Assembly (NCBI GenBank): GCA_965234735.1
Contig: OZ248542.1
Origin: Burkholderiaceae bacterium
GTDB taxonomy: Bacteria > Pseudomonadota > Gammaproteobacteria > Burkholderiales > Burkholderiaceae_C
Length of the DNA: 32,000 nucleotides
Direction: 5' to 3' (one strand)
Part shown: positions 15,167 through 31,745 of the stretch, in pieces
Numbering within the stretch: position 1 is the stretch's first letter
Layout: each line of letters starts with the position of its first letter
Notes under the pieces: generated by a model
Seen by the model: the letters and a program-made list of their open reading frames with translations, nothing else
The model's database searches: none
Told to the model about the DNA's origin: nothing
Program-made: the position numbers and the translations under genes

Positions 15167-15295
15167 AGCGAGGCCCATGCTTTGGCGCTGGGTCAGACCA
15201 GCCTAAAGCCTTGGTACCGTGGGCAGGTAAGCCATTCGTACAACAAATCCCCCTTGTTCGCACGCTGGGAGCCATAAGCCTTTAAAGTGTTGCGG

Positions 15296-16255: not shown

Positions 16256-16261
16256 GCGGTT

Positions 16262-16879: not shown

Positions 16880-16910
16880 AGGGCGATGGACGAGCCGAGA
16901 ATGTTCATTG

Positions 16911-16941
16911 AAAAAGCCCTTGATGCGGACATCAAGGGCTT
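16911..16941 (-). terminator. Intrinsic terminator downstream of the tRNA
   Basis: 11-bp perfect stem AAGCCCTTGAT / ATCAAGGGCTT with a 6-nt loop, followed on the minus strand by a T5 run. Confidence 0.6.
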
Positions 16942-16945
16942 GATT

Positions 16946-17022
16946 TGGTGGCGCTTCACGGATTCGAACCGCGGACCTGTGGATTATGATTCCATCGCTC
17001 TAACCGACTGAGCTAAAGCGCC
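16946..17022 (-). tRNA. tRNA with CAT anticodon (elongator tRNA-Met, or tRNA-Ile2 if C34 is lysidinylated)
   Basis: The reverse complement GGCGCTTTAGCTCAGTCGGTTAGAGCGATGGAATCATAATCCACAGGTCCGCGGTTCGAATCCGTGAAGCGCCACCA folds as a cloverleaf. It has a 7-bp acceptor, GCTC/GAGC D-stem, anticodon loop ATCATAA, CGCGG/CCGTG T-stem, TTCGAAT loop and encoded CCA. It is not initiator-like. Confidence 0.9.
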
Positions 17023-17095
17023 GAGCCGCAAATTATAGCGAGACTACGGTCTGGTCTATTGGGTAGTTTTTCAATGCAGCTTCAGCTTTGATTTT

Positions 17096-17245
17096 TCATT
17101 GACTGCCAGCACCCATGACAGCTGTGGTGACAGCAACACCAGAGGTCGTTGATATGCTGCTACTTGAACTGGTGCTGTTGGATCCAGCACCTCCGCCACC
17201 GCAAGCAACCAGCAACAGAGTCAATAAGAAGAATGAGATTTTCAT
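17096..17245 (-). CDS. Small putative lipoprotein (49 aa)
   Basis: The internal ATG gives MKISFFLLTLLLVAC with a lipobox (LLVAC), then a Gly/Ser/Thr-rich tail. It lies 5 nt downstream of the previous gene. Its short length keeps confidence low. Confidence 0.4.
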   Translation of the reverse strand: MKISFFLLTLLLVACGGGGAGSNSTSSSSSISTTSGVAVTTAVMGAGSQ

Positions 17246-17249
17246 GGCA

Positions 17250-17762
17250 TCAAATCTTTTGGCAAACGCCAACTGTGTCGTTGTCAATAAATTGAATCAA
17301 ATATGTATTTTTGCCATTCACAGGCAATACTTGAAATGATGGAAAGTGACCTGCGGTACCTGCTTTTTGAGAAACCAAAGCAGCACCCTCAAAATAGCCA
17401 CCACTTACTTCAAACTCATAAGACATTGCTTCTAGTTTGGCTCCTTTAGGGTAATTTACAGTGTCAACTAGCTCAAGTTTATTGATTGATCCCACAATTG
17501 TTTTGTTGTCAAAGTTGATGATGCCCATGCCATCCAATGCTTGATCTCCGCTGGGCGTAACGCCTTTGCGAGTCATGTACATCGCAATACCGCATGAACC
17601 TGAAAGGGTAGGAGTGGACACCACAGCATTTGAAGTAGGTGTGAACGTGGACAAGCTTGCGCCCACGGCAAGTGCAATAGCTACAGAAGAAATATAAATG
17701 GGAAGTTTGAATTGCACGTTAGGTCCTTGGGTTGAAATAAGCAAACCCATTGTCATAGACAA
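17250..17762 (-). CDS. Hypothetical secreted protein
   Basis: 170-aa ORF in AT-rich DNA with a hydrophobic signal-like segment (IYISSVAIALAVGASLSTFTPTSNA). No recognisable family. The true start may be internal. Confidence 0.55.
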   Translation of the reverse strand: MSMTMGLLISTQGPNVQFKLPIYISSVAIALAVGASLSTFTPTSNAVVSTPTLSGSCGIAMYMTRKGVTPSGDQALDGMGIINFDNKTIVGSINKLELVDTVNYPKGAKLEAMSYEFEVSGGYFEGAALVSQKAGTAGHFPSFQVLPVNGKNTYLIQFIDNDTVGVCQKI

Positions 17763-17980
17763 GCTTCATTTATCAAAGTCCCAAAAATAGCTCATTTCAA
17801 TCAGATATGTAAATAAATTTGATATGCAATGGCTTCTGAATGAATTTATTGCTGATAAACATCAGGCTGAATGAGGTCGCTGCAATAAGTGCATGTGAAA
17901 ACTTAACTCGCGAGGCGATTAGTGGAAATGATTGACAGTTGAAATCTATATTGGATGTCGTTTCTTATGACTCTTACCCT

Positions 17981-18067
17981 GCGTCCAGCAACAGCTCGGT
18001 TGATCAGATGTCGGGTGAACCGACACTTCAGCATCAGGGTCTGAAGTTGATTGGCCGTGGTTGCTGG
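17981..18067 (+). repeat. Island repeat family, most complete copy (87 nt, Y-shaped fold)
   Basis: GCGTCCAGCAAC box. Outer 8-bp stem CCAGCAAC (17985-92) / GTTGCTGG (18060-67). An 11-bp helix 17997-18007 / 18047-18057 contains four G:T pairs. Hairpin TGTCGG-GTGAA-CCGACA at 18009-25 and hairpin CTTCAG-N9-CTGAAG at 18026-46. Confidence 0.8.
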
Positions 18068-18111
18068 TTGGCTTTAATGAAAGTATTCCACGACGAAGTC
18101 AAGCCTACAAG

Positions 18112-18402
18112 TCAGCGCCTATATATTTCCTTGCGGTTACCAACCCGCAAGACCAAGATCACCAGTCGATCATCTTCTATGCTGGCAATGATTCTGATGT
18201 CACCCAATCGGTATTTCCAGAAGTCACCAAGCTCAGAACCTTTCAGGGCTTGACCAATACTCCTTGGATCTTTGACGCTTTGAAGTCTGGTTCTTAGAAA
18301 CTGTATGACTCTGCGAGCTACTTGAGGGTCTAGTTTGCCAAGCTCTTTCTTGGCGGCTTCATCAATTTCAATTTGCCAAGCCAAGCTCTTGCTCCACAGC
18401 AC
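18112..18402 (-). CDS. Type II toxin, RelE/ParE superfamily
   Basis: WQIEIDEAAKKELGKLDPQVARRVIQFL...LKGSELGDFWKYRLGDIRIIASIEDDRLVILVLRVGNRKEIYR is a canonical RelE/StbE pattern. It overlaps the antitoxin stop. The true start may be the TTG at 18384. Confidence 0.85.
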   Translation of the reverse strand: MLWSKSLAWQIEIDEAAKKELGKLDPQVARRVIQFLRTRLQSVKDPRSIGQALKGSELGDFWKYRLGDIRIIASIEDDRLVILVLRVGNRKEIYRR

Positions 18403-18592
18403 TCAAGCTGTAAGTTTTGCTTTTGCCATTGCGAACTTTGGCAAGTCGCTTTTCTGCAAGATAGAGATCTTCCAGATCAGCCAAATGTTCAAGAATGGCC
18501 TCACGGGCGTAAAAACTCTTGGTGCGCCCAGTGGCTTTGGCTAACTTGTCAAGACGGGACTCGATATCTTCGGGAAGTCTCAGGGCTAACAT
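18368..18592 (-). CDS. Type II antitoxin, ribbon-helix-helix (CopG/RelB-like)
   Basis: 74 aa. MLALRLPEDIESRLDKLAKATGRTKSFYAREAILEHL is an RHH fold signature. AGGAG RBS upstream. It lies upstream of and overlaps the toxin gene. Confidence 0.85.
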   Translation of the reverse strand: MLALRLPEDIESRLDKLAKATGRTKSFYAREAILEHLADLEDLYLAEKRLAKVRNGKSKTYSLSAVEQELGLAN

Positions 18593-18610
18593 GCACGTCT
18601 CCTAATTTGC

Positions 18611-18622
18611 TATACAAGTATA
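18611..18622. promoter_or_regulatory. Candidate toxin-antitoxin operator (TATAC-AA-GTATA dyad) in the TA promoter region
   Basis: A 5-bp inverted-repeat dyad lies about 20 nt upstream of the antitoxin start and overlaps a -10-like TATA stretch on the minus strand. RHH antitoxins typically autoregulate through such dyads. Confidence 0.35.
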
Positions 18623-18722
18623 TTTTGAATGCTTGAGCAAGGCAAATGAATCTATGGAGTTATCAAAACTCACATTCGACACCGTGCGGGGCAGGGTTGA
18701 CACGAAGGAGGGGTGGTAAGGG

Positions 18723-18741
18723 GTGTCGTGTAAAACGACAC
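18723..18741. repeat. Island repeat family, hairpin-only variant
   Basis: GTGTCGT-GTAAA-ACGACAC (7-bp stem). It is preceded at about 40 nt by CCGTGCGG, as is the copy at 25570. Confidence 0.6.
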
Positions 18742-18840
18742 TATGGTGTGGGGTTGGTATTGGTGGGTGAGGTCATGACGAGATGGGATTGCCACCATCA
18801 AATGAATTACTAGAAATGTCACATGTGTGTCACTGTTGTG

Positions 18841-18863
18841 AACGTTAGCGTAATGCTAATGTT
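18841..18863. promoter_or_regulatory. Candidate MerR-type operator dyad upstream of the MerR gene
   Basis: AACGTTAGC-GTAAT-GCTAATGTT (9-bp arms, one mismatch) lies just downstream of a TTGTGA -35-like hexamer at 18836-41. MerR regulators bind dyads within the promoter spacer. Confidence 0.35.
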
Positions 18864-18878
18864 GATAGACTTTTTTAC

Positions 18879-19238
18879 ATGAAAATTTCTGAGTTAGCCA
18901 AGAGAACAAATATTTCAACGCATCGCCTGCGACGGTATGAGGCGTTGGGGTTAATTAAATCAACCCGCTCAAAAAATAGCTATCGTGAATTTAGCGAAAG
19001 TGTTGTGCGTGAGGCTATTTTTATTAGTATGTCAAGGGAATGTGGATTCTCAATAAATTCAATAACTGATTACTTGCCAAGATTTAGAGCTGGAACTTTG
19101 ACAGCTAAAGAAATGATAGAGGCAATAAGGCAAAGAATAAAAGAAGTAAATGAAGCTATCAATACTCAATTGGATCTTAGAACAAAACTTGAGGATCATA
19201 TTGAATGGTTTAACAACAAAGCAAGGAAATCAAAATGA
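18879..19238 (+). CDS. MerR-family transcriptional regulator (no metal-binding Cys triad)
   Basis: MKISELAKRTNISTHRLRRYEALGLI is a winged-HTH of the MerR family, followed by a coiled-coil C-terminus. ATGA overlap with the next gene. Confidence 0.85.
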   Translation: MKISELAKRTNISTHRLRRYEALGLIKSTRSKNSYREFSESVVREAIFISMSRECGFSINSITDYLPRFRAGTLTAKEMIEAIRQRIKEVNEAINTQLDLRTKLEDHIEWFNNKARKSK

Positions 19239-19639
19239 ATGATAAAAAAGAATTTATTGAATCAATCAACTCAATGGCGGAATTCAATAAATGGTGCGGA
19301 ATTAGTGTGTTGAGTGCTACTGAAGGCGCTGTTGAAATTCAAATTGAGTGGCGCAAAGAAATGGGGCAGTACTCAGGCTTTCTTCATGCAGGACTGATAG
19401 GTACTTTGATTGATACGGCTTGTGGATTTGCGGCGGCAACTATGGCAAGTTCAAATTTACTTGCTTCTAACTTTTCTGTAAATTGCTTACGTCCTGCTAC
19501 TGGGGAGAAATTTATTGCCAGAGCTAGAGTCGTTAAACCAGGCAAACAACAATTTTTCACATCGTGTGATTTATTTTCAGTAACTGGTACTGAAGAAAAA
19601 TTAGTAGCTAATGGTGAAACGTTATTGTGTGTTGTGTAA
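19235..19639 (+). CDS. PaaI-family hotdog-fold thioesterase
   Basis: 134 aa. The pattern NKWCGISVLSATEGAVEIQIEWRKEM...GFLHAGLIGTLIDTACGFAA is typical of PaaI/YdiI-type thioesterases. Confidence 0.8.
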   Translation: MNDKKEFIESINSMAEFNKWCGISVLSATEGAVEIQIEWRKEMGQYSGFLHAGLIGTLIDTACGFAAATMASSNLLASNFSVNCLRPATGEKFIARARVVKPGKQQFFTSCDLFSVTGTEEKLVANGETLLCVV

Positions 19640-19640
19640 C

Positions 19641-19670
19641 AGCGTCCAGTAACGGGACTGTGAATGATCA
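19641..19670 (+). repeat. Island repeat family, 5' box only (left junction of the OMP module)
   Basis: AGCGTCCAGTAACGGGAC. The 14-mer TCCAGTAACGGGAC (19645-19658) recurs exactly at 20357-20370. Confidence 0.75.
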
Positions 19671-20279
19671 AAACTTCTTCGCCCAGCCCAATGTGATCAT
19701 GCTCAAGTTGGGTGCAATGGCAGCGCCACTCTTGAAGCTGGCAAATTCTTTTTTATTGGTTGGCAGGCTTGCCCACTCAAGAGTGATCAAGTTGTCTTGC
19801 ATGAATGTGTATCTGTATCCAAAGCCATAGCCTACGGATGAGAAATTGGGGGATGGCGACTTCACACCATCGGGGTCTGTTTTCATGTTGGTCCAGATCA
19901 GTTTGGCATATAAAAATCTGTTGTCCGTCAAATACATTCCAGGAGCAGCATAAAAGCCCCATTTGATTTTTTGGTCAATCTTTTCAGTGCCTTTGGTGAA
20001 CACTGTGACATCAGTCCCGGTACTACCCTTCAGGTAATAGTCAATGTCATAAGTGCCACCAAGAAGCACAGAGTATTTGTCATTCAAGGGAAGTTCATAT
20101 CCAGCATGAAGAATCACACTGGAGCCAGAGCCAAAGTTTTCAGTGGCAGTGGTCGTTTTCACTGACATGGTTTCATAGCTGGCGTCCACACCTATGTAGA
20201 ACCCGCTGTGATTGTTTTCTGCATGGGCTGCAAAGTTAAACAGCATAAGGGGCGCAATTAGACTGAGTGGATATTTCAT
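19668..20279 (-). CDS. Outer-membrane beta-barrel protein (OmpW/opacity-porin-like small barrel)
   Basis: The internal ATG gives the signal peptide MKYPLSLIAPLMLFNFAAHA. The protein has alternating amphipathic beta strands, aromatic girdles and a C-terminal ...ITLGWAKKF ending in Phe. Confidence 0.75.
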   Translation of the reverse strand: MKYPLSLIAPLMLFNFAAHAENNHSGFYIGVDASYETMSVKTTTATENFGSGSSVILHAGYELPLNDKYSVLLGGTYDIDYYLKGSTGTDVTVFTKGTEKIDQKIKWGFYAAPGMYLTDNRFLYAKLIWTNMKTDPDGVKSPSPNFSSVGYGFGYRYTFMQDNLITLEWASLPTNKKEFASFKSGAAIAPNLSMITLGWAKKF

Positions 20280-20350
20280 AATAAATTTCGCAAAGTGTAT
20301 GGATCGACAAATTCTATCAATTTGGCTTGTAAATTGATCACGACACTTGC

Positions 20351-20589
20351 ACGGCTTCCAGTAACGGGACGACTGATGGTGACGGTTCAGTCCGACCCTA
20401 AAGATACAGAATTGAAAACGCGTACAGGTCAAGCAGTGTGAAGTCTGCGTCCAGCGACGGCTCGGTTGAGAGATGTCGGTTTAACCCTTCCTTGTGCAGC
20501 TGGATAAAACACCCAGCAGAGGTCAAGCTGTGTGATGGATGCGTCACGCTTCAGTTGGATTGATTGATGCGGGTTCAATCCAGCAGGGT
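20351..20589 (+). repeat. Three tandem, progressively decayed copies of the island repeat
   Basis: Copy a, 20357-20398: TCCAGTAACGGGAC...GACGG-TTCAG-TCCGAC. Copy b, 20447-20503: GCGTCCAGCGACGGCTCGGTTGAGAGATGTCGG...GCAGCTGGA. Copy c, 20541-20589: GCGTCAC...TGGATTGA-N11-TCAATCCA GCAGGGT. Copies b and c are each preceded by AGGTCAAGCWGTGTGAWG. Confidence 0.7.
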
Positions 20590-20642
20590 TATCTAAGTAG
20601 GTTTCTAAATGTAGTAATGTTGATGTGTCGATTGGAGGACAT

Positions 20643-21110
20643 ATGATTTACAAAGACCGAATGACAGCACGGATGGATGGTGATTTTGTCGTCTTCCTAA
20701 TTGGGATGCGTATCAACAAGCCACTGGCATTTCACAAGTACTTGCCTGTGCTGAATGCGATGCCCAAGATGCTGACAGAGCTTTATACAAAACCAGAGTT
20801 GGGTTTGATACACCACGAGATGTGGTTTTCACGAACGATCATTTTGGTTCAATATTGGCGTTCAATGGAACTACTCATTGATTACGCAAAAAACAAAGAC
20901 TCCGCCCATTTGCCAGCTTGGCAAGCATTCAACAAAGCTGTTGGCACGGATGGTAGCGTAGGCATATGGCACGAAACATACAAAGCAGGTCAGGGCACCT
21001 ATGAAAATGTCTACGCCAATATGCCAGCCTTTGGTTTGGGTAAAGCTGGAACTTTGGTAGAAGCTAAGGGTGAGTTGAAGTCAGCGACCGATCGCTTTGC
21101 AAGCAAATAG
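20643..21110 (+). CDS. DUF4188-like protein (uncharacterised)
   Basis: The ATG at 20643 lies 6 nt after a GGAGG RBS. DGDFVVFLIGMRINK...EMWFSRTIILVQYWRSMELLIDYA matches my memory of the DUF4188 family. This is unverified. Confidence 0.6.
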   Translation: MIYKDRMTARMDGDFVVFLIGMRINKPLAFHKYLPVLNAMPKMLTELYTKPELGLIHHEMWFSRTIILVQYWRSMELLIDYAKNKDSAHLPAWQAFNKAVGTDGSVGIWHETYKAGQGTYENVYANMPAFGLGKAGTLVEAKGELKSATDRFASK

Positions 21111-21174
21111 TTGAAATACCATTATTCTTACAAATGGACAGTACTTCATGCTGAAGATAGGCAGTGGGATGGCA

Positions 21175-21240
21175 GCGTACGGCGACGGGACGATCAATAG
21201 ATGTCGGGTGAACCGACACTACGGCAGCAGGGTAGCTGAT
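21175..21240 (+). repeat. Island repeat family copy
   Basis: GCGTACGGCGACGGGACGATCAAT, then AGATGTCGGGTGAACCGACACT (21199-21220). That 22-mer is identical to 18006-18027. It is followed by CAGCAGGGTAGCTGA, related to the second hairpin of the 17981 copy. Confidence 0.8.
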
Positions 21241-21325
21241 TTCCTTTCTCAGGACATTAGCAGTACCTATTTCATTATCATGATGGTTATTTCGAAAAAA
21301 ACTGTTAGGCATTGAGAATCTTCAG

Positions 21326-22372
21326 ATGAACCGCTCTGGTGTTGTATTTGCATTATTGGCAGCATTCTTATTTGGTGCCAGTACACCCCTTGCCAAACTA
21401 CTGATTGGCGACGTCCCGCCTGTGTTGCTAGGCGGCTTGCTCTACTTGGGGAGCGGTGTTGGTTTGAGTGTTTATAGACTTGTACGTGACAAATCATGGC
21501 ATGCATCGGGCATGCAGGCTGGCGAATGGAAATGGCTCGCAGGTGCCATATTCTTCGGGGGAGTGCTGGGACCAGTTGCCCTGATGTATGGCTTGATCAG
21601 CACCTCGGGATCAACGGCTTCTTTAATGCTGAATTTGGAATCGGTGTTGACTGCAGTTATTGCTTGGGTCGTCTTCAAAGAAAACGCAGACAAGCGTATC
21701 GTTTTGGGAATGTTGGCTATCGTATTGGGTGGTGTTGTACTTACATTTCAACCTGACACGAAAGAAAGTGGTTCTTCATTGTTGGGCTTGTCAGCCATTG
21801 CCTTGGCATGCACATGCTGGGCAATAGACAACAATTTGACACGAAAGGTATCCGCCTCAGACCCAGTGTTCATAGCCAGCACCAAAGGTTTATTGGCTGG
21901 TATTGTGAATTGCACCATCGCTTTATTGATGGGCATGCAATTCCCAGAAATCCAAACAACTGTGGTCGCAATGACGCTGGGTTTGTGTGGTTATGGCATC
22001 AGTCTGGTGTTATTTGTCCTGGCACTCAGAGGGCTAGGTGCTGCCAGGACAGGCGCTTACTTTTCTACAGCGCCATTCATTGGTTCAGCGGTGGCACTGG
22101 TGTTTATGGGTGAAAGTGCCAGTACTGCTTTTTGGTTAGCTTCAGTGCTAATGGGACTGGGGGTTTGGTTGCACATCTCAGAAGTTCATGAGCATGAACA
22201 TACTCACGAAGTGCTTGAGCATTCACATGCACACTCACATGATGAGCACCATCAACATGATCATTCTGATGGCGAAGTGTTCAGCGACAACCATGTTCAC
22301 TGGCACAGGCATACAGCACTGAAACACAAGCATCCTCATTACCCTGACATTCATCATCAGCATTCCCATTGA
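21326..22372 (+). CDS. DMT/EamA-family transporter with a histidine-rich C-terminal tail
   Basis: 10-TM EamA-type duplication. The last 66 residues or so (22172-22369) contain 24 His (HEHEHTHEVLEHSHAHSHDEHHQHDHSD...HWHRHTALKHKHPHYPDIHHQHSH). Confidence 0.85.
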   Translation: MNRSGVVFALLAAFLFGASTPLAKLLIGDVPPVLLGGLLYLGSGVGLSVYRLVRDKSWHASGMQAGEWKWLAGAIFFGGVLGPVALMYGLISTSGSTASLMLNLESVLTAVIAWVVFKENADKRIVLGMLAIVLGGVVLTFQPDTKESGSSLLGLSAIALACTCWAIDNNLTRKVSASDPVFIASTKGLLAGIVNCTIALLMGMQFPEIQTTVVAMTLGLCGYGISLVLFVLALRGLGAARTGAYFSTAPFIGSAVALVFMGESASTAFWLASVLMGLGVWLHISEVHEHEHTHEVLEHSHAHSHDEHHQHDHSDGEVFSDNHVHWHRHTALKHKHPHYPDIHHQHSH

Positions 22373-22394
22373 CTATCGTGCCAGGGAGTATTGG

Positions 22395-22763
22395 ATGAAT
22401 TTACAATTAGCGATGATCAGAAAAACCCGAGCGATCTTTTCGTTGCTTTTGTGCTTGAATTTATTTGCCATCAGTCTGTATGGCTGCCTGATCAACTTTG
22501 CAGACAACTTGCATATGATGACGACCCACCAAGTTGCCATTGACCATCATCACCATGACTCATTTTCATTACATATCGATCATGACGATGTCAATATGGT
22601 TCATCAACATACGGTTGATTATGTTCAAAATATCGCGGTGCTGGTTGATAACAACTTATCGACACCTCTCTTGAAAGTTAGCAGAGTTCATTTGCCTCAA
22701 ATTGAACAACCTGCTTCTGCCCTTATCGAGGGTCCATTCAGACCCCCGCAATTGCCCGCTTGA
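22395..22763 (+). CDS. Small His-rich membrane-anchored/periplasmic protein, CzcI-like
   Basis: GGGAG RBS and an N-terminal TM/signal segment. HQVAIDHHHHDSFSLHIDHDDVNMVHQH. The C-terminal EGPFRPPQLPA resembles the ...DGPRKPDW end of CzcI as I recall it. Confidence 0.5.
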   Translation: MNLQLAMIRKTRAIFSLLLCLNLFAISLYGCLINFADNLHMMTTHQVAIDHHHHDSFSLHIDHDDVNMVHQHTVDYVQNIAVLVDNNLSTPLLKVSRVHLPQIEQPASALIEGPFRPPQLPA

Positions 22764-22818
22764 TCTCGAGTCCAGATGAGCAATTTGCCGTCTGTTTATT
22801 GATTTCAAAAGGGTCGTT

Positions 22819-23604
22819 ATGAAATTGAACTTTTCATTCATGAAGGGCGGTTTACTGCTCTTACTGATGCCATTGCTTGCGTTTGCACATGGCATCAGCG
22901 AAGCGGACAAGCAACGGATGTTGGATGGCGGCTATATGCAGTATGTGGGACTGGGTGCCAGTCACATGCTCACAGGCTACGACCACTTGCTGTTTTTGCT
23001 GGGCGTGGTGTTTTTCTTAAGCACTTTCAAAGACATTGTGAAGTTTGTGACTGCCTTTACTGTGGGTCACTGCATCACCTTGGTTTTTGCAACCTTTTTC
23101 CATATCACTTGGAACTTTTGGTTGGTTGACGCCATCATTGCAGTCAGTGTGATCTACAAAGGTTTTGACAACAACGGCGGTTTTCAGAAGCATTTCAATA
23201 TGTCTTCACCGAACCTGCTTGGCATGGTTTTCGCCTTTGGCTTGTTACACGGCTTTGGCTTATCCACTCGTTTGCAGCAACTTCCACTTGGTGAAGATTC
23301 GTGGCAAATGTTGCTTCGCATCCTGAGCTTCAATGTAGGTGTTGAGCTTGGACAAATTGCCGCACTGATTGTCATGGTGGGTGTACTTGCAATATTCAGA
23401 AAATCAAAGTCTTTTTTGCGATTCAGCTATTTTGCAAATTTGGGATTGATTGCAGCAGGCATATACCTGTTGTTTGTTCAATTGCATGGTTACCAGCACG
23501 ACACAAACGCAGAGCTTTTCCGATTCCCTGTTCAAGAGCATATTCATATCCACGAGGATATGGAAATTCAAAATGCAACAACTTCACCTCGAAATTCACT
23601 TTAA
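22819..23604 (+). CDS. HupE/UreJ-family membrane protein (Ni/Co-transporter-like family)
   Basis: Signal peptide ending AFAHG, then GYDHLLFLLGVVFF ... FTVGHCITL ... FGLLHGFGLS ... FNVGVELGQ, the conserved HupE_UreJ-type motifs. Confidence 0.8.
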   Translation: MKLNFSFMKGGLLLLLMPLLAFAHGISEADKQRMLDGGYMQYVGLGASHMLTGYDHLLFLLGVVFFLSTFKDIVKFVTAFTVGHCITLVFATFFHITWNFWLVDAIIAVSVIYKGFDNNGGFQKHFNMSSPNLLGMVFAFGLLHGFGLSTRLQQLPLGEDSWQMLLRILSFNVGVELGQIAALIVMVGVLAIFRKSKSFLRFSYFANLGLIAAGIYLLFVQLHGYQHDTNAELFRFPVQEHIHIHEDMEIQNATTSPRNSL

Positions 23605-23619
23605 TTCAAAGGAAAAAAC

Positions 23620-23970
23620 ATGAAAAATATTATTCAGATCTTGACATTGGTGTTAGCCATCACATCTTCTCAATCAGTCATGGCGGGTGGTGGTGAGGAT
23701 TGCCACTTTCACGGTAGCAAGCCGGCAGCCAAAGAGACAGTTCTCAAGTGTGCCGATCAGCGAGTTGAAAAATTGATTGCTCGCGGCAAGCTAGATGCCG
23801 GTTGGAAAGCCATCACTCCTGAATCCATCGCTCCAATCGATGGGGAAAAAGGCAAAGAATGGAAAATCGTCATTAAAAACCCAACTGCCTCTGACAAGAC
23901 AAAGGCAACTTTGTATTTGTTTTTTGCTGAAAATGGTAACTTCATTGCAGCGAATCACACAGGAAAGTAA
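23620..23970 (+). CDS. Small secreted protein with an N-terminal CHFHG motif (PepSY-like neighbour of HupE/UreJ genes)
   Basis: AAGGAAAA RBS and signal peptide MKNIIQILTLVLAITSSQSVMA. The mature N-terminus is GGGEDCHFHG. It is followed by a strong terminator. Confidence 0.6.
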   Translation: MKNIIQILTLVLAITSSQSVMAGGGEDCHFHGSKPAAKETVLKCADQRVEKLIARGKLDAGWKAITPESIAPIDGEKGKEWKIVIKNPTASDKTKATLYLFFAENGNFIAANHTGK

Positions 23971-23980
23971 GTAGCATTGA

Positions 23981-24020
23981 AACCAGGACAACTAGGGCGA
24001 AAGTTGCCCTGGTTTGTTTG
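23981..24020 (+). terminator. Intrinsic terminator
   Basis: Stem 23981-23993 / 24002-24014 (AACCAGGACAACT / AGTTGCCCTGGTT, 12 of 13 pairs) with an 8-nt loop, then TGTTTG. Confidence 0.65.
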
Positions 24021-24062
24021 AGTTAGGTTTAAGAATTCAATAGGAGGTAATTTGCTCTCAAT

Positions 24063-24431
24063 ATGGACAGAATAAGTTGGTGTCCACTAGAATGGCTTAT
24101 GCGTATGTGGTGCTTGACATTGTGTTTTAGTTTGATCAGTGGTTTATTCCACGCATCTGCCATGCCATTGGAATCCTTGTCAACGTCACCAGTTGGGTCT
24201 ATGACTGCTGAAAGCCACACGGCATGCCACGAAGCACAAGACACCAGCCACCAAAAATCTTGTCATATCACTGGTCATTTGTGTTGCCTAGGCTTCACCA
24301 CATTAGCAAGCCACAAGCCGCAATCTGCATTGCATTTGAATCACACGTGGAATCCAGTTTTTCGAACATTGCTTCTTCAAGAACATCCATTCAAGCAGTT
24401 CAAACCTCCCAAGCGTCCTTTCCAAATCTAA
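24063..24431 (+). CDS. Small Cys/His-rich exported protein, CzcI/DUF2946-like (second paralogue)
   Basis: Hydrophobic N-terminus. ESHTACHEAQDTSHQKSCHITGHLCCLGF. C-terminal FKPPKRPFQI. The start is uncertain because the AGGAGG at 24042-47 is 15 nt from the ATG. Confidence 0.45.
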   Translation: MDRISWCPLEWLMRMWCLTLCFSLISGLFHASAMPLESLSTSPVGSMTAESHTACHEAQDTSHQKSCHITGHLCCLGFTTLASHKPQSALHLNHTWNPVFRTLLLQEHPFKQFKPPKRPFQI

Positions 24432-24480
24432 AAAAACATCTTGCCCCTTTGAGGGCTGTTATCTTTGATTGGAGAATTTG

Positions 24481-24981
24481 ATGAACATGACGCATTACAT
24501 GGAGTTGTTGGCTGTCAACCAACCTTGGAACTTATTGATATTCATGGCCATTCCGATAGTGCTGGCGGAAACGCTGGCCATCAGCGAGTTGTATCTGCTG
24601 TCCACACGCAACTACACGGGCTGGGTCAATAGCTTGAACCGCATGGCAGGAATCACTGTGGGTTTGTATTTCATCGGGGTGATTGTGTATCTGATGAAAA
24701 CCGCCGTGTTGCCCATCACCCAAGCAGGAGAGTGGCGAACCATCATTGATGTGATTGCGGTGGGCACTTATTTGATTGGCGGCCTGCCACTCATCTACAT
24801 CGCTTTTCAGGAATTAGGATGGGTCAACACAAAAGCGACAGATGAGTCCAAGCGTCATACACATGCCATTTGTGTGGCATTGTTTTTGGTGTTCGGACAT
24901 ATCGCAATGATTGCTGGCATGTTAGATCCCTCATTGCTAGGCTATGTGCCTGAAGGCATGTCAGAGATGCACAACCATTGA
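24481..24981 (+). CDS. Hypothetical polytopic membrane protein
   Basis: ATG at 24481, 6 nt after GGAG. About 5 TM segments. The C-terminus ends in EGMSEMHNH. No family recognised. Confidence 0.6.
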   Translation: MNMTHYMELLAVNQPWNLLIFMAIPIVLAETLAISELYLLSTRNYTGWVNSLNRMAGITVGLYFIGVIVYLMKTAVLPITQAGEWRTIIDVIAVGTYLIGGLPLIYIAFQELGWVNTKATDESKRHTHAICVALFLVFGHIAMIAGMLDPSLLGYVPEGMSEMHNH

Positions 24982-24994
24982 CAGTTTGAAGTTC

Positions 24995-25033
24995 GGAAAT
25001 GGTGTCTTATCTCAAGACACCATTTCTTGTTTA
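24995..25033. terminator. Bidirectional intrinsic terminator between convergent genes
   Basis: Perfect 13-bp stem GAAATGGTGTCTT / AAGACACCATTTC with a 5-nt loop, followed by TTGTTT. Confidence 0.75.
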
Positions 25034-25048
25034 AGGCAACCATTTCCA

Positions 25049-25483
25049 CTATGCCTGTCGTGACCAAGCTTGAGGTTTTGCTGTCGCAGCAGTATTTGCC
25101 ACAAAAGCCCCGCTTTTCGGCACGATAGACGAATTTGCCGTTGTGGTAGTTGTCACAGGCATTCGGGGGGCAAGTGCTTGCTGACGCTGGGCTAGGCTCT
25201 GAGCCTGTGGGTTGGCAGCTGGGGGTTGACTGGGCTTGGCGCTGGGGTTCTCTGGGGGTGGGGCTTTCTTGGGTGGGGGTGTCTTGGGGGAGGGCATGGG
25301 TGCAGCTGATCTGCTTTTGCCTTTGCGACCACCCCGAGGTTTCAGCTTGGCCTTGGCTGCTTTGGCCTGCTCAGCTTGTGCTTGTTGCTGACGCTGGGTT
25401 TCAATGGCCTGCCAAACACTGTCACTGACCAAGCGCCACAAGGCCATTTGATCTTCGGCACTGGCAATTTCATTGATACGCAT
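25049..25483 (-). CDS. Hypothetical protein with Pro/Lys/Ala/Gln-rich low-complexity C-terminal half
   Basis: 144-aa ORF with a structured-looking N-terminus (MRINEIASAEDQMALWRLVSDSVWQAIE) followed by low complexity. Coding status is plausible but unproven. Confidence 0.45.
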   Translation of the reverse strand: MRINEIASAEDQMALWRLVSDSVWQAIETQRQQQAQAEQAKAAKAKLKPRGGRKGKSRSAAPMPSPKTPPPKKAPPPENPSAKPSQPPAANPQAQSLAQRQQALAPRMPVTTTTTANSSIVPKSGAFVANTAATAKPQAWSRQA

Positions 25484-25569
25484 CCCCGACTCCTTTTCTT
25501 TTATTTATCAGAAAAGTACTCAGGGCATATTCAAAAACCTAGGCCGTGCGGTTCCAGCCCGGGTTCCGG

Positions 25570-25588
25570 GTGTCGGTTCAACCGACAC
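25570..25588. repeat. Island repeat family, hairpin copy
   Basis: GTGTCGG-TTCAA-CCGACAC, preceded by CCGTGCGG about 25 nt upstream. A second unrelated 9-bp hairpin CAGGCCTGA-N7-TCAGGCCTG follows at about 25597-25621. Confidence 0.65.
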
Positions 25589-25625
25589 TGCGTGAACAGG
25601 CCTGAATTTCAATCAGGCCTGATGT

Positions 25626-26063
25626 TTACTTGCCAAAGCCCTCCCGCAGCTTGTTGCTGGCAGACTCAATTTGGGTGTCAAGCTCTCCGGCTTCCACTGC
25701 CCGCTTGAGCAGCTCCAAAGTGGGAATCAAGTCTGTTTGTGCAGCAACTTCTATGGTGCTTTTGCCCTTGGCAATCTCAACCACCTTCGCACCATATCTG
25801 ACATTCAGTGCAATCTTGCCGTTGTCCCCATTCCACCACCAAGCGCGAACACGCTTGGGCAGCTCGATGCTGCGACGCAAGCCATCTTGATCTGTCACAG
25901 TGCGAAAGCGTGTGGTGGTGAATTCTTTGCCTTCCAAGTGGGCTTGTGCCAGTTGGATCTGCTCCCACAATTTCTTGCACAGCTTGTTGCGGCGCTGTGC
26001 TGCGGGATTCATCACCTGTGACTTTTTGCTGGTACTCAGCTTGAGAGTTGCGATTGTGCTCAT
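25626..26063 (-). CDS. Conserved hypothetical protein (mobile-element associated)
   Basis: The ATG at 26063 lies 8 nt after an AAGGAG RBS. MSTIATLKLSTSKK...RVRAWWWNGDNGKIALNVRYGAKVVEI resembles small island/ICE-borne proteins I have seen annotated only as DUF. Confidence 0.6.
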   Translation of the reverse strand: MSTIATLKLSTSKKSQVMNPAAQRRNKLCKKLWEQIQLAQAHLEGKEFTTTRFRTVTDQDGLRRSIELPKRVRAWWWNGDNGKIALNVRYGAKVVEIAKGKSTIEVAAQTDLIPTLELLKRAVEAGELDTQIESASNKLREGFGK

Positions 26064-26432
26064 GTCATTTGCTCCTTGTTTGTTAATGACAAAAACAACT
26101 TTAGTTTCGACCAGCATTTCTGGGCAACCACGATGTCATGGAAACCCGAAAGACCTCTGGGACTTTGCCCAAAATCACATAAAAATCACCAGATTTTCAA
26201 TAGCTTTTATTTGGTTCAGCTAAATAAACATGACAGGCAAATCAAAGAACTGGATTTGTGCTGCCATTTATTACTACCGAAACAAAGAGCCGCGTCACTC
26301 AGTCGTACTTGACGCCCTAGACCTGGACATTGGTGTTCGCAGGGACGGAAATTCTGAGCGGTAGCAGAGACTTGTTGTCACTACCCGTTGAGGATGCTGT
26401 TGGGAGTTGCTGACCAATTGACACAAGAATCT

Positions 26433-26447
26433 ATTCAAGCACCAAGG
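26433..26447 (+). repeat. Left copy of a 15-bp perfect inverted repeat ATTCAAGCACCAAGG
   Basis: Exact reverse complement of 28048-28062. A partial direct copy TTCAAGCATCAAC lies at 26723-26735. Confidence 0.9.
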
Positions 26448-26647
26448 TGATGGACTCAATGTCCATGCACCACGAGCAAGCCCTGCCTACACAGCAACTT
26501 GCAAACCCTGCGGCCAGTTGGCACTTCGGCTGTCGCAGACTGTTGCGTTTCATTAGCAGCACATAAAAGGAGACCGCGAAACCGCCCTTGCCTAATTAGG
26601 TTGTGCTGAAGTGCTGTGGTAACGAACTCAGCGAAAGAGTGTTGCCC

Positions 26648-26678
26648 AAAAAACTGAGCCTGTGTGCACAAGGCTCAG
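26648..26678 (-). terminator. Orphan intrinsic terminator on the minus strand (no annotated gene upstream of it)
   Basis: 8-bp stem CTGAGCCT / AGGCTCAG (26654-61 / 26671-78). On the minus strand it is followed by TTTTTT (26648-53). Confidence 0.55.
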
Positions 26679-27146
26679 TGTGGGTTGAATCTAGCGAAAG
26701 CCCTTGAACACCAGTCACAGTTTCAAGCATCAACACAATATCAAATTAAATTGACAATTCAAACTCTAGTATCAAATAGGAAATAAATGTGCTGAAACAA
26801 ATCCTTGAGCGATCAGCGAAAAGGGATTTGTGAAAGCACAAGCGAGCTGCAAGGCTCGCTATCAATACACCATGAATGGATTCAGCAATTTTACAAATGG
26901 CATCGTGCGAGTTCAGTTATGTAACCTCAGGAGTGGTTAAAAATCACCACCATGAAAAGTCAAGTACTGGGTGCTAATTTTTCGCAGCTGAAAAAATTAT
27001 CAATGCAGACCCCATTTGGGCAAACAGCAGCTGGGTCAAATCAGCCCTACAGCGCAAGATCGCTTGAGCCCAGCACCCCGAGCTACCCAGCTGATCAAAA
27101 ACTGCTTGTAGGGCTGCTAAATACATCGTGGCGTAACAGCCACGAG

Positions 27147-27155
27147 TTATCCACA
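27147..27155 (+). promoter_or_regulatory. Perfect consensus DnaA box TTATCCACA
   Basis: Exact 9-mer in the noncoding leader upstream of the recombinase gene. A single box could be chance. Confidence 0.3.
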
Positions 27156-27314
27156 GACGCTCATACTAAAACCACATCAAATCGTGATTTCATGAGGTTC
27201 TTGCGTAACGCATTGATTTCATTGACCCGAAGTTGTTTCGGGTTTCAGGTTGTCCAGACCATATCAAAGAAAACAAACTGTAGCTCTGTATTTATTACTT
27301 TTAGGAGCACTGAA

Positions 27315-27887
27315 ATGAAACAAGCAAAAACACTCACAGCTGCTGAATTGCGCCGTGTAACTGATTCCATAGCCACAAGAGCACATGCAGCCCGCAACAG
27401 AGCCATGCTGATGATGACCCATTTGGCAGGACTTCGCGTGGGAGAAGTTGCCCAACTCACTTGGACGGATGTGATCAACGCAGAAGGGCGGGTGCGCGAG
27501 GAGGTACGTTTGAATGCCGATCAGACCAAGGGCAGACATCCACGCACTGTTTACATCAGTCCCAAGCTGCAAAAGGAATTACAAACCTATGCCAGTTCAA
27601 TCAAGCAGCGCGAAGACTCAGCTGCGTTCTTTTACACCCAGAAACACCCACGCAGAGGCTTTACGCCCAACACATTGGCTCAGCACTTCTTGAACATGTA
27701 TCGCGTGGCTGGCATTGACGGTGCCAGTAGCCACAGTGGTCGCAGGACGTTTGCAACTTCGCTCAGCAGCCGAGGAGCCAGCATCAGGGTGCTGATGAAA
27801 ATCCTAGGACACCGCAACATATCGACCACTATCGGATATGTGGATGCCAGCGACGACATGCTGCGCCGTGCGGTTGAGTTGGTGTAA
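27315..27887 (+). CDS. Short (190 aa) tyrosine recombinase, catalytic domain only, FimB/FimE-sized
   Basis: The ATG lies 8 nt after AGGAG. Catalytic signature: R in AGLRVGEV, K in QTKGRHPRTVYI, HxxR in SHSGRRTF, H in LGHRNISTT, Y in IGYVD. HAARNRAML...LRVGEV parallels the FimB HAARNYCL...FRASEI segment as I recall it. Confidence 0.85.
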   Translation: MKQAKTLTAAELRRVTDSIATRAHAARNRAMLMMTHLAGLRVGEVAQLTWTDVINAEGRVREEVRLNADQTKGRHPRTVYISPKLQKELQTYASSIKQREDSAAFFYTQKHPRRGFTPNTLAQHFLNMYRVAGIDGASSHSGRRTFATSLSSRGASIRVLMKILGHRNISTTIGYVDASDDMLRRAVELV

Positions 27888-27895
27888 AACTCGCA

Positions 27896-27957
27896 GCGTC
27901 ACTCAAGACTCAACATCACAAGGGGCACAACACCAAGTGTCGGTTCGCCCGACACTT
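27896..27957 (+). repeat. Island repeat family copy immediately 3' of the recombinase gene
   Basis: GCGTCAC box at 27896-27902, then the hairpin AAGTGTCGG-TTCGC-CCGACACTT (27935-27957, 9-bp perfect stem). Confidence 0.7.
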
Positions 27958-28034
27958 GATGACGGGGGGCAGCCCTTATGCTGTCCGGACTCCAATTGGC
28001 GGACTTGCAATCCACCAGCCCAAACAAGCACGGG

Positions 28035-28955
28035 TCAGAACAACAGGCCTTGGTGCTTGAATGATGGTTCTGCTGACACCATGCCCACCGCACCAGTACA
28101 CCGTATTACCTGACTTCTGGCGTACATGGACTCCTCCAATGAGTGGGAAGTTAGATGTGGCAATAAGTCCACGGCTTGCAACTCAAGGCATTGCTGATCA
28201 TTGGACAAGGCCTCTTTGCAGGGAAACTTGTCGATGGCGGCATATTCAGAAATGTTTGCCGCCCATGCTCTGTGCCGAACCACCATGGCCACTAACAATC
28301 GTCGCTCATGATCTTGGCTGGAGTTCATGCGTCGACCCGTGGGCTCGACCTTGCCAATGAATCTGTCAACCAGCATGGCCTCTGCACCCAATCGCCAAAG
28401 TTCTGCCTCGGGGTAGTTTTTAATCAGGTAGGCAAGGTAGACATCACGCCAGAGGTTTTTCTGCACCACTGGCGTCAATCGCACGCCTAGGTGATCTTCA
28501 CTGTCTGCCCTGACTTTGACAGCTGACGGCACCATGGAGGCAATCATGGCCAAAAGCTCCAGCTGCGGCATGGCATTACGTCCATACGGAAAGCGGATAA
28601 ACAAATCCGACTGATGCCCGACCATAAGCGTTTGAGCAGAGACTATCTCCGGCATTCGGCTCGGAGCTTTGATGCGCACACTGCCTGCACCTGCCACCCA
28701 GTCCTCAAAACTGGTTTGGTGTACATCACGGTACTTGTTGACACAGGCAAGCACTTTTGCACCGTGCCGGTTTAGCTTGATGCTCTTACTGCCCAAGCTA
28801 CGCAGGCTGTGCAAGCTGCCTGCTGCGTAACTGGGGCTCAAGCGCAGGTAGTTATAGAAAAGTCGCGCGGAGGTCATTGCAGCGACCCAATGCCGTTTGG
28901 TTGACCGAGCAAGCCCAGTCAGGAGAGTTGCCACCATTGCCAATACCCCTTTCAC
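28035..28955 (-). CDS. Hypothetical protein (about 290-306 aa)
   Basis: Long ORF with ordinary amino-acid composition, divergent from the 29081 gene. The start is uncertain: GTG at 28955, ATG at 28937, or ATG at 28877. No family recognised. Confidence 0.6.
   Translation of the reverse strand: MKGVLAMVATLLTGLARSTKRHWVAAMTSARLFYNYLRLSPSYAAGSLHSLRSLGSKSIKLNRHGAKVLACVNKYRDVHQTSFEDWVAGAGSVRIKAPSRMPEIVSAQTLMVGHQSDLFIRFPYGRNAMPQLELLAMIASMVPSAVKVRADSEDHLGVRLTPVVQKNLWRDVYLAYLIKNYPEAELWRLGAEAMLVDRFIGKVEPTGRRMNSSQDHERRLLVAMVVRHRAWAANISEYAAIDKFPCKEALSNDQQCLELQAVDLLPHLTSHSLEESMYARSQVIRCTGAVGMVSAEPSFKHQGLLF
28048..28062 (-). repeat. Right copy of the 15-bp perfect inverted repeat (CCTTGGTGCTTGAAT on the plus strand)
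   Basis: Exact reverse complement of 26433-26447. It lies inside the last 9 codons of the minus-strand ORF 28035..28955. Confidence 0.9.
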
Positions 28956-29080
28956 AGATTTACTAACTTTTTTCGTTAACCCTTTTTGTATGTATTCACG
29001 GGCTGTACCAAAAGCTGAAATCGGGGGGTGGCCATCATGGTGATTGCCGCACTTTCAATTCACATTTTTTGGAGAACTTC

Positions 29081-29911: not shown

Positions 29912-29981
29912 ACAAATTCCTGCAACAGATCTGACTAACTACCTATTCAGTTAAATGCACAGATAAATGTCTTCAACCCTT

Positions 29982-30015
29982 GAGTGATCACGCCAGCGTG
30001 GTCACTCCCTTTTTT
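29982..30015 (+). terminator. Intrinsic terminator/attenuator between the 276-aa gene and the AAA+ gene
   Basis: 10-bp stem GAGTGATCAC / GTGGTCACTC (one G:T pair) with a 6-nt loop, then CC-TTTTTT. It lies only about 20 nt before the AAA+ start codon. Confidence 0.6.
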
Positions 30016-30034
30016 AATTGATGGAGATTGCACC

Positions 30035-30784: not shown

Positions 30785-30786
30785 TC

Positions 30787-31664: not shown

Positions 31665-31745
31665 TGCAACTTTGATTAACTAATGGTTAGGTGGCTGAGA
31701 ATGTTTAGCATTCAAAGCTTCTTGACCTGGCAGTCGAAGTTGCTT

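Follow-up and report, generated by a model that had tools for sequence, protein, structure and literature searches.

Co-oriented repeats of ~94 nt at the module borders of a tRNA-Met-linked genomic island: candidate junction sites and a candidate small tyrosine recombinase

How are the unrelated gene modules of a bacterial genomic island kept apart, and how are they exchanged? The question is raised by a 32,000-nt stretch of contig OZ248542.1 from a Burkholderiaceae bacterium (GenBank assembly GCA_965234735.1), here called the window, in which the GC content is ~0.58 in the core up to ~17.0 kb and 0.40-0.47 from there onward. The low-GC part is an island that starts at the 5' side of a tRNA-Met gene (16946-17022), and within it a family of short repeats lies between modules of different function. 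Based on a comparison of the window with related loci and contigs, which are designated by L-numbers, we conclude that these repeats are very probably the junction sites of a module array in which exchange takes place mostly in the hairpin of the site. That the exchange is site-specific and carried out by the 190-aa enzyme encoded in the island is a separate and more tentative proposal, which association argues for and which we place somewhat below an even chance. Taken as one statement, a junction-site array whose exchange is performed by the element's own 190-aa tyrosine recombinase seems to us as apt to be right as wrong.

The repeat family is confirmed and, within the window, is restricted to the island, as originally predicted. 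The window contains four perfect matches to the hairpin TGTCGG-N5-CCGACA and a fifth whose two mismatches are compensatory; all five lie in 18009-27954, and shuffled sequences give 1.1 when two mismatches are allowed. A second motif, the BOX GCGTCCAGYRACRG, was located at five positions, always on the plus strand: without mismatch at 17981, 19642 and 20447, with a single mismatch at 20354 and with two at 21175. A mechanical repeat search that was given no prior information retrieved the hairpin family (as its families D2/D3), and the reported 22-mer is indeed identical at 18006-18027 and 21199-21220. A covariance model, R1, made from 24 copies that all come from contigs other than the window, was run unfiltered over the whole window; it recovered eight of the nine copies in the original prediction at 15-74 bits and returned nothing with E < 0.4 in 1-17000 or 28000-32000. 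The ninth copy, claimed at 20541-20589, reached 3.2 bits (E = 7, not significant), its support being its leader sequence and the 94-nt tandem spacing only. Two further hairpins had been missed, a degenerate one of the second type immediately ahead of copy 1 (17956-17972) and a related one, TGTCTT-ATCTC-AAGACA, at 25003-25019.

The build of the unit was read from an alignment of 32 distinct copies and from inspection of many junctions. The basic unit is ~94 nt long and consists, in order, of a ~22-nt leader (GAGGTCAAGCTGTGTGATGGCA), the BOX (GCGTCCAGCGACGG), a 13-nt spacer, the main hairpin HP-A (TGTCGG-N5-CCGACACT) and a right arm (ACGGCAGCAGGGT); in some units the leader is replaced by a second hairpin type, HP-B (TGTCGT-N5-ACGACA, with the canonical form TGTCGT-TTCTC-ACGACA). 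The result is a mosaic in which leader, BOX, two or three hairpin types and long or short right arms appear in varying combinations, and gene-free units repeat with a 93-95-nt period (25 cases across loci). Taken as a possible self-contained stem-7 nt-stem site, the BOX keeps its right arm in only about half of the copies, whether a hairpin follows or not. The nearly invariant hairpin TGTCGG-TTCAA-CCGACA can likewise be read as TGTCG-GTTCAAC-CGACA, with 5-bp inverted arms and a 7-bp centre; inverted arms flanking a central region are the usual layout of tyrosine-recombinase core sites. The wider hairpin class, TGTC-NN-loop-NN-GACA, has three complementary stem alleles (GG/CC 97, GT/AC 52, CT/AG 16), and 172 of its stem pairs are complementary and 39 are not, where 13 complementary pairs would be expected if the two sides were independent. 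The 5-nt loop of HP-B is inverted in half of 40 distinct copies (GAGAA 20, TTCTC 20; for example L007:6432, 7040 and 7560), and the BOX downstream of HP-B keeps its orientation despite this flip inside a 6-bp palindrome; for the loop of the main hairpin the ratio is 47:12.

Across more than 100 related contigs, entire modules have been acquired, lost or relocated, and the breakpoints tend to fall within or beside the repeats. In L060, window positions 17051-21196 (4.1 kb) are missing and the breakpoint lies at the hairpin beginning at 21202, so that the tRNA region is followed by an HP-B with a BOX-like stretch and then by window 21197-25390 at 98% identity. Module 1 (modules are numbered as in Table 1) is missing there and also in L041, L059 and L071, and other modules follow the tRNA instead, in the last three loci the toxin-antitoxin (TA) module immediately. 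In L008, a 3.9-kb block (response regulator and TonB receptor) is enclosed by two hairpins; at the corresponding place in L011 there is just one. At least four different left contexts are seen for the TA module, which in L008 and L011 also lies in the right-hand cargo region of the element. The DUF4188 gene, encoding an identical protein, has three different left and three different right neighbours, and on the left side the three contexts meet, to within 2 nt, at the point where the left hairpin arm passes into the loop. Module 3 is joined to another left neighbour at window 18776 in L002 and L003, a 70-nt remnant of the outer-membrane protein gene of module 4 lies beside a repeat in L073, and L026 has only the HupE-DUF6803 part of module 6, with a unit before it; module 6 itself (21326-24981) contains no family repeat. 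The claim that copies lie at module junctions holds for the cargo; the copies at 25571 and 27938 are conserved backbone features, not cargo junctions.

The breakpoints can be counted. In an all-against-all BLAST comparison of 71 loci, 118 of 402 internal breakpoints were no more than 10 nt from a repeat feature, where random positions give 17.5, a contrast that is inflated by intergenic bias, breakpoints being 3.3-fold enriched in intergenic space. The test was therefore repeated within sequence outside open reading frames (ORFs), where 79 of 238 breakpoints lay within 10 nt of a repeat against 32.3 expected, a 2.4-fold enrichment. The orientation of the sites is equally regular: the BOX orientation within loci is 126:4, the window units are all on the plus strand at tandem, convergent and divergent gene junctions alike, and modules keep a fixed orientation relative to the sites. 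Because the plus orientation holds whatever the direction of the genes, we propose that the units function at the DNA level, in connection with the array, rather than at the level of RNA or transcripts.

These counts also bear on the possibility that the units serve regulation or insulation, as DNA or RNA elements (operators for a regulator encoded by the element, for instance, or stabilisers of transcript ends) that travel with modules and coincide with junctions through a shared intergenic location. The intergenic bias of the breakpoints would be expected in that case, and conservation that lies in the primary sequence (76% mean column identity), as for a protein-binding palindrome, and the location of the backbone copies at the 3' ends of operons would fit as well. 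We nevertheless consider a regulatory role improbable as the explanation of the junctions, given that the 2.4-fold enrichment at repeats persists among intergenic positions and that orientation follows the array and not the flanking genes, with units lying between divergent promoters as well as after stop codons. A terminator scan called no family hairpin and found no T-run after any of them, and separate terminator-like hairpins, true terminators, adjoin some family copies. Regulation would moreover leave unexplained both the gene-free tandem units and the hybrid sites whose halves segregate with different modules. A structured-RNA reading of the units was dropped because RNAalifold found no consensus fold across the 32 aligned copies on either strand. 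The Rfam search that had been suggested as a check gave no match at any unit, either at gathering thresholds or at a permissive E <= 5, the matches of Rfam 15 in the window being the tRNA and the Polynucleobacter-1 RNA only.

Where in the unit does the exchange occur? Fine mapping shows that 21 of 28 informative site pairs fit a crossover between -3 and +18 of the hairpin, and that four or five implicate the BOX. When only the right flank is shared, identity extends leftward to hairpin -3 to +6 in five of seven pairs. When only the left flank is shared, the pairs diverge at +18 to +20 (seven), at +27 to +36 (six), at +46 and +72 (two), in the BOX at -27 to -21 (four) or at -1 (one). From these divergence points it follows that the BOX and spacer segregate with the left module and the right arm with the right module.

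A candidate for the catalyst is encoded in the island. The tyrosine recombinase at 27315-27887 was predicted to be 190 aa long, and this length stands: a ribosome-binding site favours the start at 27315, and more than 100 cluster representatives of the family (58-98% identity) have 190-191 aa, both of which led us to reject a 311-aa reading of the ORF. The Pfam catalytic domain covers the entire protein, which lacks an N-terminal core-binding domain; the catalytic residues are all present and align with those of XerA/XerD structures, and the domain resembles Xer-type enzymes most closely. More than 100 metagenome contigs with different cargo encode the identical 190-aa protein. A search of viral contigs found relatives of the small recombinase at 26-28% identity only, and a phage origin was dropped for that reason. 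A hairpin of the TGTC...GACA class stands directly 3' of the recombinase stop codon in lineages whose enzymes are 62-100% identical, namely in the window, L021 (74%), L119 (81%, TTGTCGGTTTAACCGACAA) and L124 (62%), and in L106 (65%) a variant-stem hairpin starts from the first base past the stop, with more copies at other backbone junctions. In the window itself, a copy at 27896-27957 had been placed 9 nt past this stop; the actual start is 51 nt past it, the hairpin 27938-27956 belonging to the family and the rest of the claimed copy not.

The 190-aa enzyme had also been taken for the only recombinase, which it is not. The far end of the element, seen in related loci and lying outside the window, carries a ~431-aa protein (p431), behind which lie a 73-aa gene (p73) and a second copy of the 46 bp at window 17005-17050. 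This protein is a tyrosine integrase of divergent sequence, matching a PHROG integrase at E = 1e-19 and, weakly, Pfam SAM-like and catalytic domains; its divergence is such that the Pfam catalytic-domain model scores under its cut-off.

We propose that the array is the variable arm of a mobile island beside tRNA-Met. A module would open with the right-hand portion of a site (the loop and the right arm of the hairpin, and ~15 nt, ACGGCAGCAGGGT), continue with one to six genes in either direction and end with the left part of the next site (~22-nt leader, BOX, 13-nt spacer and left hairpin arm); sites with no genes between them would appear as 94-nt tandem units. Recombination between two sites would allow modules to be gained, lost or moved, with the crossover mostly inside the hairpin TGTCGG-TTCAA-CCGACA and less often in the BOX. 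The catalyst would be the element's 190-aa tyrosine recombinase, without the usual N-terminal DNA-binding domain, and the 431-aa integrase outside the window would handle integration of the whole element at the tRNA. It is also conceivable that BOX and hairpin are two site types, each of which might be served by one of the element's two recombinases. A related element suggests that BOX and hairpin are distinct kinds of site whose union took place in the lineage of the window: L106 has its own hairpin allele, ATGTCCTTTCAAAAGGACAT (stem TGTCCT/AGGACA), and, in six copies, a perfect palindrome that includes the BOX, GCGTCCAG-TTG-CTGGACGC. This locus holds a complete 12.6-kb relative (L106:6331-19008), bounded by a perfect 50-bp tRNA-derived direct repeat.

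The main rival to a dedicated enzyme is homologous exchange between the copies that different elements carry, as could happen once elements have integrated in tandem or DNA has been taken up. The units would then be selfish or neutral mosaic palindromes, similar to bacterial interspersed mosaic elements (BIMEs) or miniature inverted-repeat transposable elements and dispersed over the intergenic spaces of this element family, and homologous recombination or template switching at extruded hairpins would shuffle the modules with no dedicated recombinase at all. At the junctions inspected, no obvious target-site duplication of the kind that flanks such transposable elements was noticed. We hold this to be unlikely, yet a contender to be taken seriously. 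The modular, mosaic build of the unit and the periodic gene-free tandem arrays are readily accommodated by it, as is the quarter of mapped pairs that break elsewhere than in the hairpin; tandem copies of the element, which exist in L006 and L067, would supply homologous partners. The flipping of the HP-B loop in half of its copies points the same way, being a known outcome of template switching on hairpins. Homologous exchange accounts less well for the 126:4 orientation, since inserted selfish repeats and BIME clusters usually show both or alternating orientations, and for an identical core of just 17-21 bp, which is close to or under the length usually required for efficient RecA recombination. 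Nor does it lead one to expect that three independent left contexts of the DUF4188 gene converge within 2 nt, that the post-stop hairpin keeps its position across lineages while its stem sequence changes, or that the copy number outside these elements is essentially zero.

Several points weigh against our preferred explanation, site-specific exchange by the 190-aa enzyme. The hairpin that contains most of the mapped crossovers is also the longest identical stretch of the unit and would be favoured by homologous recombination too, seven of the 28 fine-mapped pairs require crossovers outside it, and with the intergenic control the enrichment of breakpoints at repeats is just 2.4-fold. Many of the loci are closely related and the counts are not counts of independent events. 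Most of the comparison sequences are contigs from short-read metagenomes, in which joins that span repeats could be assembly chimeras; the same junctions do recur in independent samples and assemblers. The sites are linked to the recombinase by association only, through co-occurrence and position, and the recombinase lineages L121 and L123 lack such a hairpin; in the window's sub-lineage, R1 detects no hairpin on the far side of the backbone block. Finally, the mixed orientation of the modules and their possession of their own regulators would also fit ordinary island mosaicism.

How, then, does this system relate to known ones? It works like an integron or a pdif module array and is, by the tests applied here, a member of neither: the integron- and pdif-like architecture originally proposed is borne out for sites at module borders and mobile modules, and membership of attC or pdif is not supported. 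As in integron arrays, sedentary chromosomal ones above all, directly oriented sites of about 60-140 nt bound mobile modules at every border, a module bears the greater part of a site on one side and a small remainder on the other, and there are gene-free units, a TA module in the array, a tyrosine recombinase nearby and modules that recur in different arrays and positions. Unlike integron sites, the units here are conserved in sequence and not as a two-armed fold, their inferred crossover lies in a short perfect palindrome and not at the GTT triplet of a folded strand, and the array sits inside a tRNA-integrating element. The modules also differ from single promoterless, co-oriented ORF cassettes, having one to six genes on both strands and regulators of their own (MerR, a TA operon).

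The copy that most resembles an attC site is copy 1, at the left end of the array. Its Y-shaped fold, described originally, is genuine (-42.6 kcal/mol, z = -3.6; the other strand is weaker, at -32.3 kcal/mol) and is formed by a long right arm folding back on the BOX. It is not a property of the family, as no other copy folds significantly and the long right arm is limited to copies that precede the TA module (also in L008 and L011). It would be very surprising if the units were true attC sites of a cluster lacking an integrase (CALIN), or Xer sites of the pdif type, with IntI or XerCD encoded elsewhere in the genome. Copy 1 does have an outer stem CCAGCAAC/GTTGCTGG with AAC...GTT triplets, an internal loop, a second helix, a branched tip and strand asymmetry, direct sites do lie at the module borders, and TA modules are typical of chromosomal integron arrays (PMC13108822). 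The two-armed fold, however, is confined to the copies before the TA module, the family consensus has no R'/L' half, and the modules are multi-gene, run in both directions and carry their own regulators. The 190-aa enzyme scores 37.1 bits against the IntI model TIGR02249 (cut-off 265) and 20.1 bits against NF011946 (cut-off 435), through the C-terminal motif only, and no other IntI candidate occurs in the window or in any related locus.

A pdif site comprises 28 bp, an 11-bp XerC arm, a 6-bp spacer and an 11-bp XerD arm. A degenerate dif/pdif pattern found no such 11-6-11 site with up to three mismatches, the hairpin arms here being 6-8 bp. Moreover, pdif sites are inversely oriented, alternating between C/D and D/C (PMC6449649, PMC13141974), whereas the units here are direct. 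The likeness to the Acinetobacter pdif system consists in short core-type sites, with inverted arms and a central region, that bound modules of unrelated function, in the shuffling of these modules among related replicons and in the frequency of TA modules. The differences, besides the layout and sequence of the site, are that the site is embedded in a 94-nt unit, that the candidate enzyme is encoded by the element and lacks an N-terminal domain, and that the array resides on a chromosomal island and not on a plasmid.

A generic repetitive extragenic palindromic (REP) family had been named as the finding that would overturn the original prediction. The resemblance is real in that short extragenic palindromes are combined with other motifs in a mosaic, sometimes in tandem clusters. 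REP and BIME sequences, in contrast, occur in hundreds of copies chromosome-wide and in alternation. The repeats here are co-oriented, have no copy in the 17-kb core and are hardly ever met in genomes other than those with this element family. A scan for exact matches in one genome per species (185,579 genomes, many of them fragmented metagenome-assembled genomes (MAGs) that are prone to lose islands) found 53 stretches for a pattern expected ~26 times by chance, about half of them thus being attributable to chance. The excess falls in freshwater genomes of Limnohabitans, Comamonadaceae and Burkholderiales, with one to four exact hairpins per representative genome, and most of these loci also hold backbone or array genes. 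R1 detects over 100 units of full length in the element loci; in control genomes it sees essentially the bare hairpin by which they were fetched, the exception being L048, with a weak full-span match of 25.6 bits. The repeats are therefore not a genome-wide REP.

The array is carried by an integrative element that has inserted on the 5' side of tRNA-Met. Limnohabitans-like freshwater Comamonadaceae harbour a widespread family of such tRNA-Met-integrating elements, to which this island belongs. Its 46-bp att-like segment (attF) is matched by BLASTN at 96-100% identity in L004-L009, L037 and L050, and a second copy adjoins p431/p73 in at least eight related loci (for example L004:13951-13996), so that a partial tRNA/att segment is duplicated beside an integrase gene, as in tRNA-integrating islands. 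The element's second end falls outside the window, which stops before the large integrase. The duplication comprises the 5' end of tRNA-Met with 28 nt upstream, and not the usual 3' end. The host names on some related records look like mislabels: MAG records titled 'Rickettsia typhi' and 'Bordetella parapertussis' (L017, L026, L060/L064) are 86-98% identical to the island and the tRNA region.

Integration at the tRNA raises one more alternative, namely that the units are decayed att remnants, partial tRNA or att copies left by successive integrations of small elements. Tandem integration at this tRNA does occur, with a duplicated 46-bp att beside p431 in L004-L009 and L067, and islands of the tycheposon type hold scattered partial tRNAs (10.1101/2020.12.28.424599). 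Such an origin is highly improbable here, because the units resemble neither the 46-bp att segment nor tRNA-Met, no tRNA-like match is found at any unit at E <= 5, units also lie inside the conserved backbone, and 0.6-kb modules contain no integrase remnants. A tRNA-remnant origin was rejected on the first of these grounds.

At the scale of the whole element, tycheposons nonetheless offer a parallel: they integrate at tRNAs and leave part of the tRNA/att duplicated, older copies are displaced inward as others insert in tandem, and they combine adaptive or defensive cargo with a divergent integrase. They are reported to vary as whole elements, unlike the array here, and integration here is at the 5' end of the tRNA; their description mentions neither internal palindromic junction repeats nor a second small recombinase, and the strings 'palindrom' and 'hairpin' do not occur in it (10.1101/2020.12.28.424599). 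Another parallel is the Streptomyces island PAISt, for which modular excision at repeated 8-bp palindromes is described (PMC4057263). There too, one island has several short palindromic att copies, and recombination between them removes or moves sub-modules; the PAISt copies are few, belong to the island's own att and are used by its integrase (PMC4057263). The 94-nt unit described here is, in contrast, distinct from and unrelated to the island's att segment and lies at nearly every module border.

With the FimB/FimE invertases the small recombinase shares its size (~190-200 aa) and its reduction to a catalytic domain. Against the invertase models NF007371 and NF007370 it scores 33.7 and 33.1 bits, where the cut-offs are 222 and 221. 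The adjoining three-gene block (window 28035-30784) is inverted as a unit in L121:4531-7017, L123:7513-10066 and L124:6017-8653, and in L124 the inverted block is bracketed by two family hairpins. Both orientations were not seen within any one lineage, nor was any sign of switching within a population, as FimB/FimE would show, observed.

Among dedicated systems for cassette capture in bacteria, integrons are to our knowledge the main one so far, with pdif as a narrower second example. Our search of the literature yielded no description of this repeat family nor of a role for this recombinase family, and an integron-like layout with different sites and a very small recombinase may represent an undescribed gene-capture system. 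The full form of this idea, an integron-like yet integron-unrelated platform for gene capture with ~94-nt directional sites, a palindromic crossover core and a 190-aa recombinase in tRNA-integrating elements, is one that we offer tentatively, as a possibility of roughly one in three. If it is true, abundant freshwater bacteria would hold a third independent solution to cassette capture, site-bounded module arrays would be a recurrent way to build flexible genomic islands, and there would be a mechanism for the gene-by-gene change of tRNA-linked 'additive' islands. It would also explain what is done by a large family of very short tyrosine recombinases, for which databases offer the label XerD-like and nothing more. 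Even if the exchange is homologous, the repeats should be useful as markers that delimit modules in metagenomic islands. Elements of this family are widespread in freshwater Comamonadaceae and often carry defence genes.

Table 1. Features of the island in the window (R1, covariance model of the repeat unit)
Feature	Position	Strand	Basis and remarks
tRNA-Met (CAT)	16946-17022	-	ARAGORN; Rfam tRNA model, 67.6 bits; exactly at the GC shift
46-bp att-like segment 'attF'	17005-17050		First 18 nt of the tRNA and 28 nt upstream
Module 1: two small predicted secreted proteins	17051-17955		17115-17339 (+), 17250-17762 (-)
Degenerate HP-B hairpin, TGTCGT-TTCTT-ATGACT	17956-17972	+	Read from the sequence; aligns with HP-B row L070_3339
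Unit copy 1: BOX, spacer, hairpin 18009-18025, long right arm	17978-18067	+	R1, 64.7 bits for 17978-18046
Module 2: ParE toxin and TraY/ribbon-helix-helix antitoxin	18112-18592	-	Pfam
HP-B copy, TGTCGT-GTAAA-ACGACA at 18724-18740	18717-18761	+	R1, 17.2 bits
Module 3: MerR regulator and 4HBT thioesterase	18879-19639	+	Pfam
BOX-only site GCGTCC-AGTAACG-GGACTG, BOX 19642-19655	19639-19694	+	R1, 27.5 bits
Module 4: outer-membrane beta-barrel protein	19668-20279	-	Pfam OMP_b-brl
Three tandem 'empty' units, 93-94-nt period	20351-20604	+	20351-20418 (R1, 27.7 bits), 20444-20511 (46.3 bits), degenerate 20538-20604 (3.2 bits, E = 7)
Module 5: DUF4188/Monooxy_af470-like protein	20643-21110	+	Pfam
Best unit copy, hairpin 21202-21218	21172-21239	+	R1, 73.9 bits
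Module 6: EamA transporter, 122-aa protein, HupE/UreJ, DUF6488, 122-aa protein, DUF6803	21326-24981	+	Pfam
12-bp-stem hairpin with TGTCTT-ATCTC-AAGACA at 25003-25019	24997-25025	+	Read from the sequence
Backbone p144, DUF6641	25049-25483, 25626-26117	-	Pfam; beside the small recombinase in all lineages examined
Backbone hairpin copy 25571-25587	25569-25608	+	R1, 28.8 bits; between p144 and DUF6641
Polynucleobacter-1 RNA	26287-26425	+	Rfam RF01718, 94.9 bits
190-aa tyrosine recombinase, catalytic domain only	27315-27887	+	Pfam Phage_integrase, 1.4e-26
Backbone hairpin copy	27938-27956	+	R1, 15.1 bits; 51 nt past the recombinase stop, between convergent genes
Backbone block p306 (-), p280 (+), AAA+ ATPase (+), p193 (+), p88 (+)	28035-31641		Conserved

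Individual copies in the window illustrate the variety of the sites (Table 1). The HP-B copy after the TA module has a G-rich lead-in that is common to other loci, and the BOX-only site sits in a 28-nt gap between two convergent stop codons. The hairpin at 24997-25025, which has a perfect stem and a T-rich tail, includes a TT/AA member of the TGTC...GACA class; it closes the EamA-DUF6803 module and ends ~10 nt before backbone homology with L004-L006 starts (25036), at the border of cargo and backbone. The position of the hairpin between p144 and DUF6641 is conserved in L004-L006, L012 and L064.

The cargo of the window comprises transport, metal and envelope genes and a TA pair, and the two proteins of module 1 have no Pfam match. 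More distant members of the element family (L119, L121, L123, L124, L103) carry mainly anti-phage cargo, including a TIR-domain protein, type I and MmeI-type restriction-modification, Abi_C and a DprA-like protein. The backbone, conserved on all the contigs that encode the 190-aa protein while the cargo varies, consists of p144, DUF6641, a 1.2-kb gene-free stretch, the recombinase, a ~270-306-aa protein, a ~280-aa protein and an AAA+ ATPase, and the same backbone occurs in the more distant elements at other insertion sites, mostly with defence cargo (TIR, type I/MmeI restriction, Abi). For p306, p280, p193 and p144, searches of PADLOC, Pfam, NCBIfam, PHROGs and Protein Data Bank (PDB) sequences gave nothing usable, and the AAA protein has generic AAA+ matches only. 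An AlphaFold model of p306, from a 20-sequence alignment, had a mean predicted local distance difference test (pLDDT) score of 53.5 and was not used for a fold search.

At the end of the window, an ORF at 31746-32000 that runs off the last position encodes an N-terminal helix-turn-helix with weak likeness to IS30/IS630 transposases (E ~1e-3), and may, to judge by this similarity, represent an insertion sequence that splits the element between p88 and the large integrase. The gene-free stretch between DUF6641 and the recombinase (26118-27314) has no called genes over its 1.2 kb, is ~95% conserved and contains the Polynucleobacter-1 RNA. This RNA is absent from five other loci with related recombinases and present in L004 and L010 as well as in the window, and is thus at least sometimes part of a mobile element backbone.

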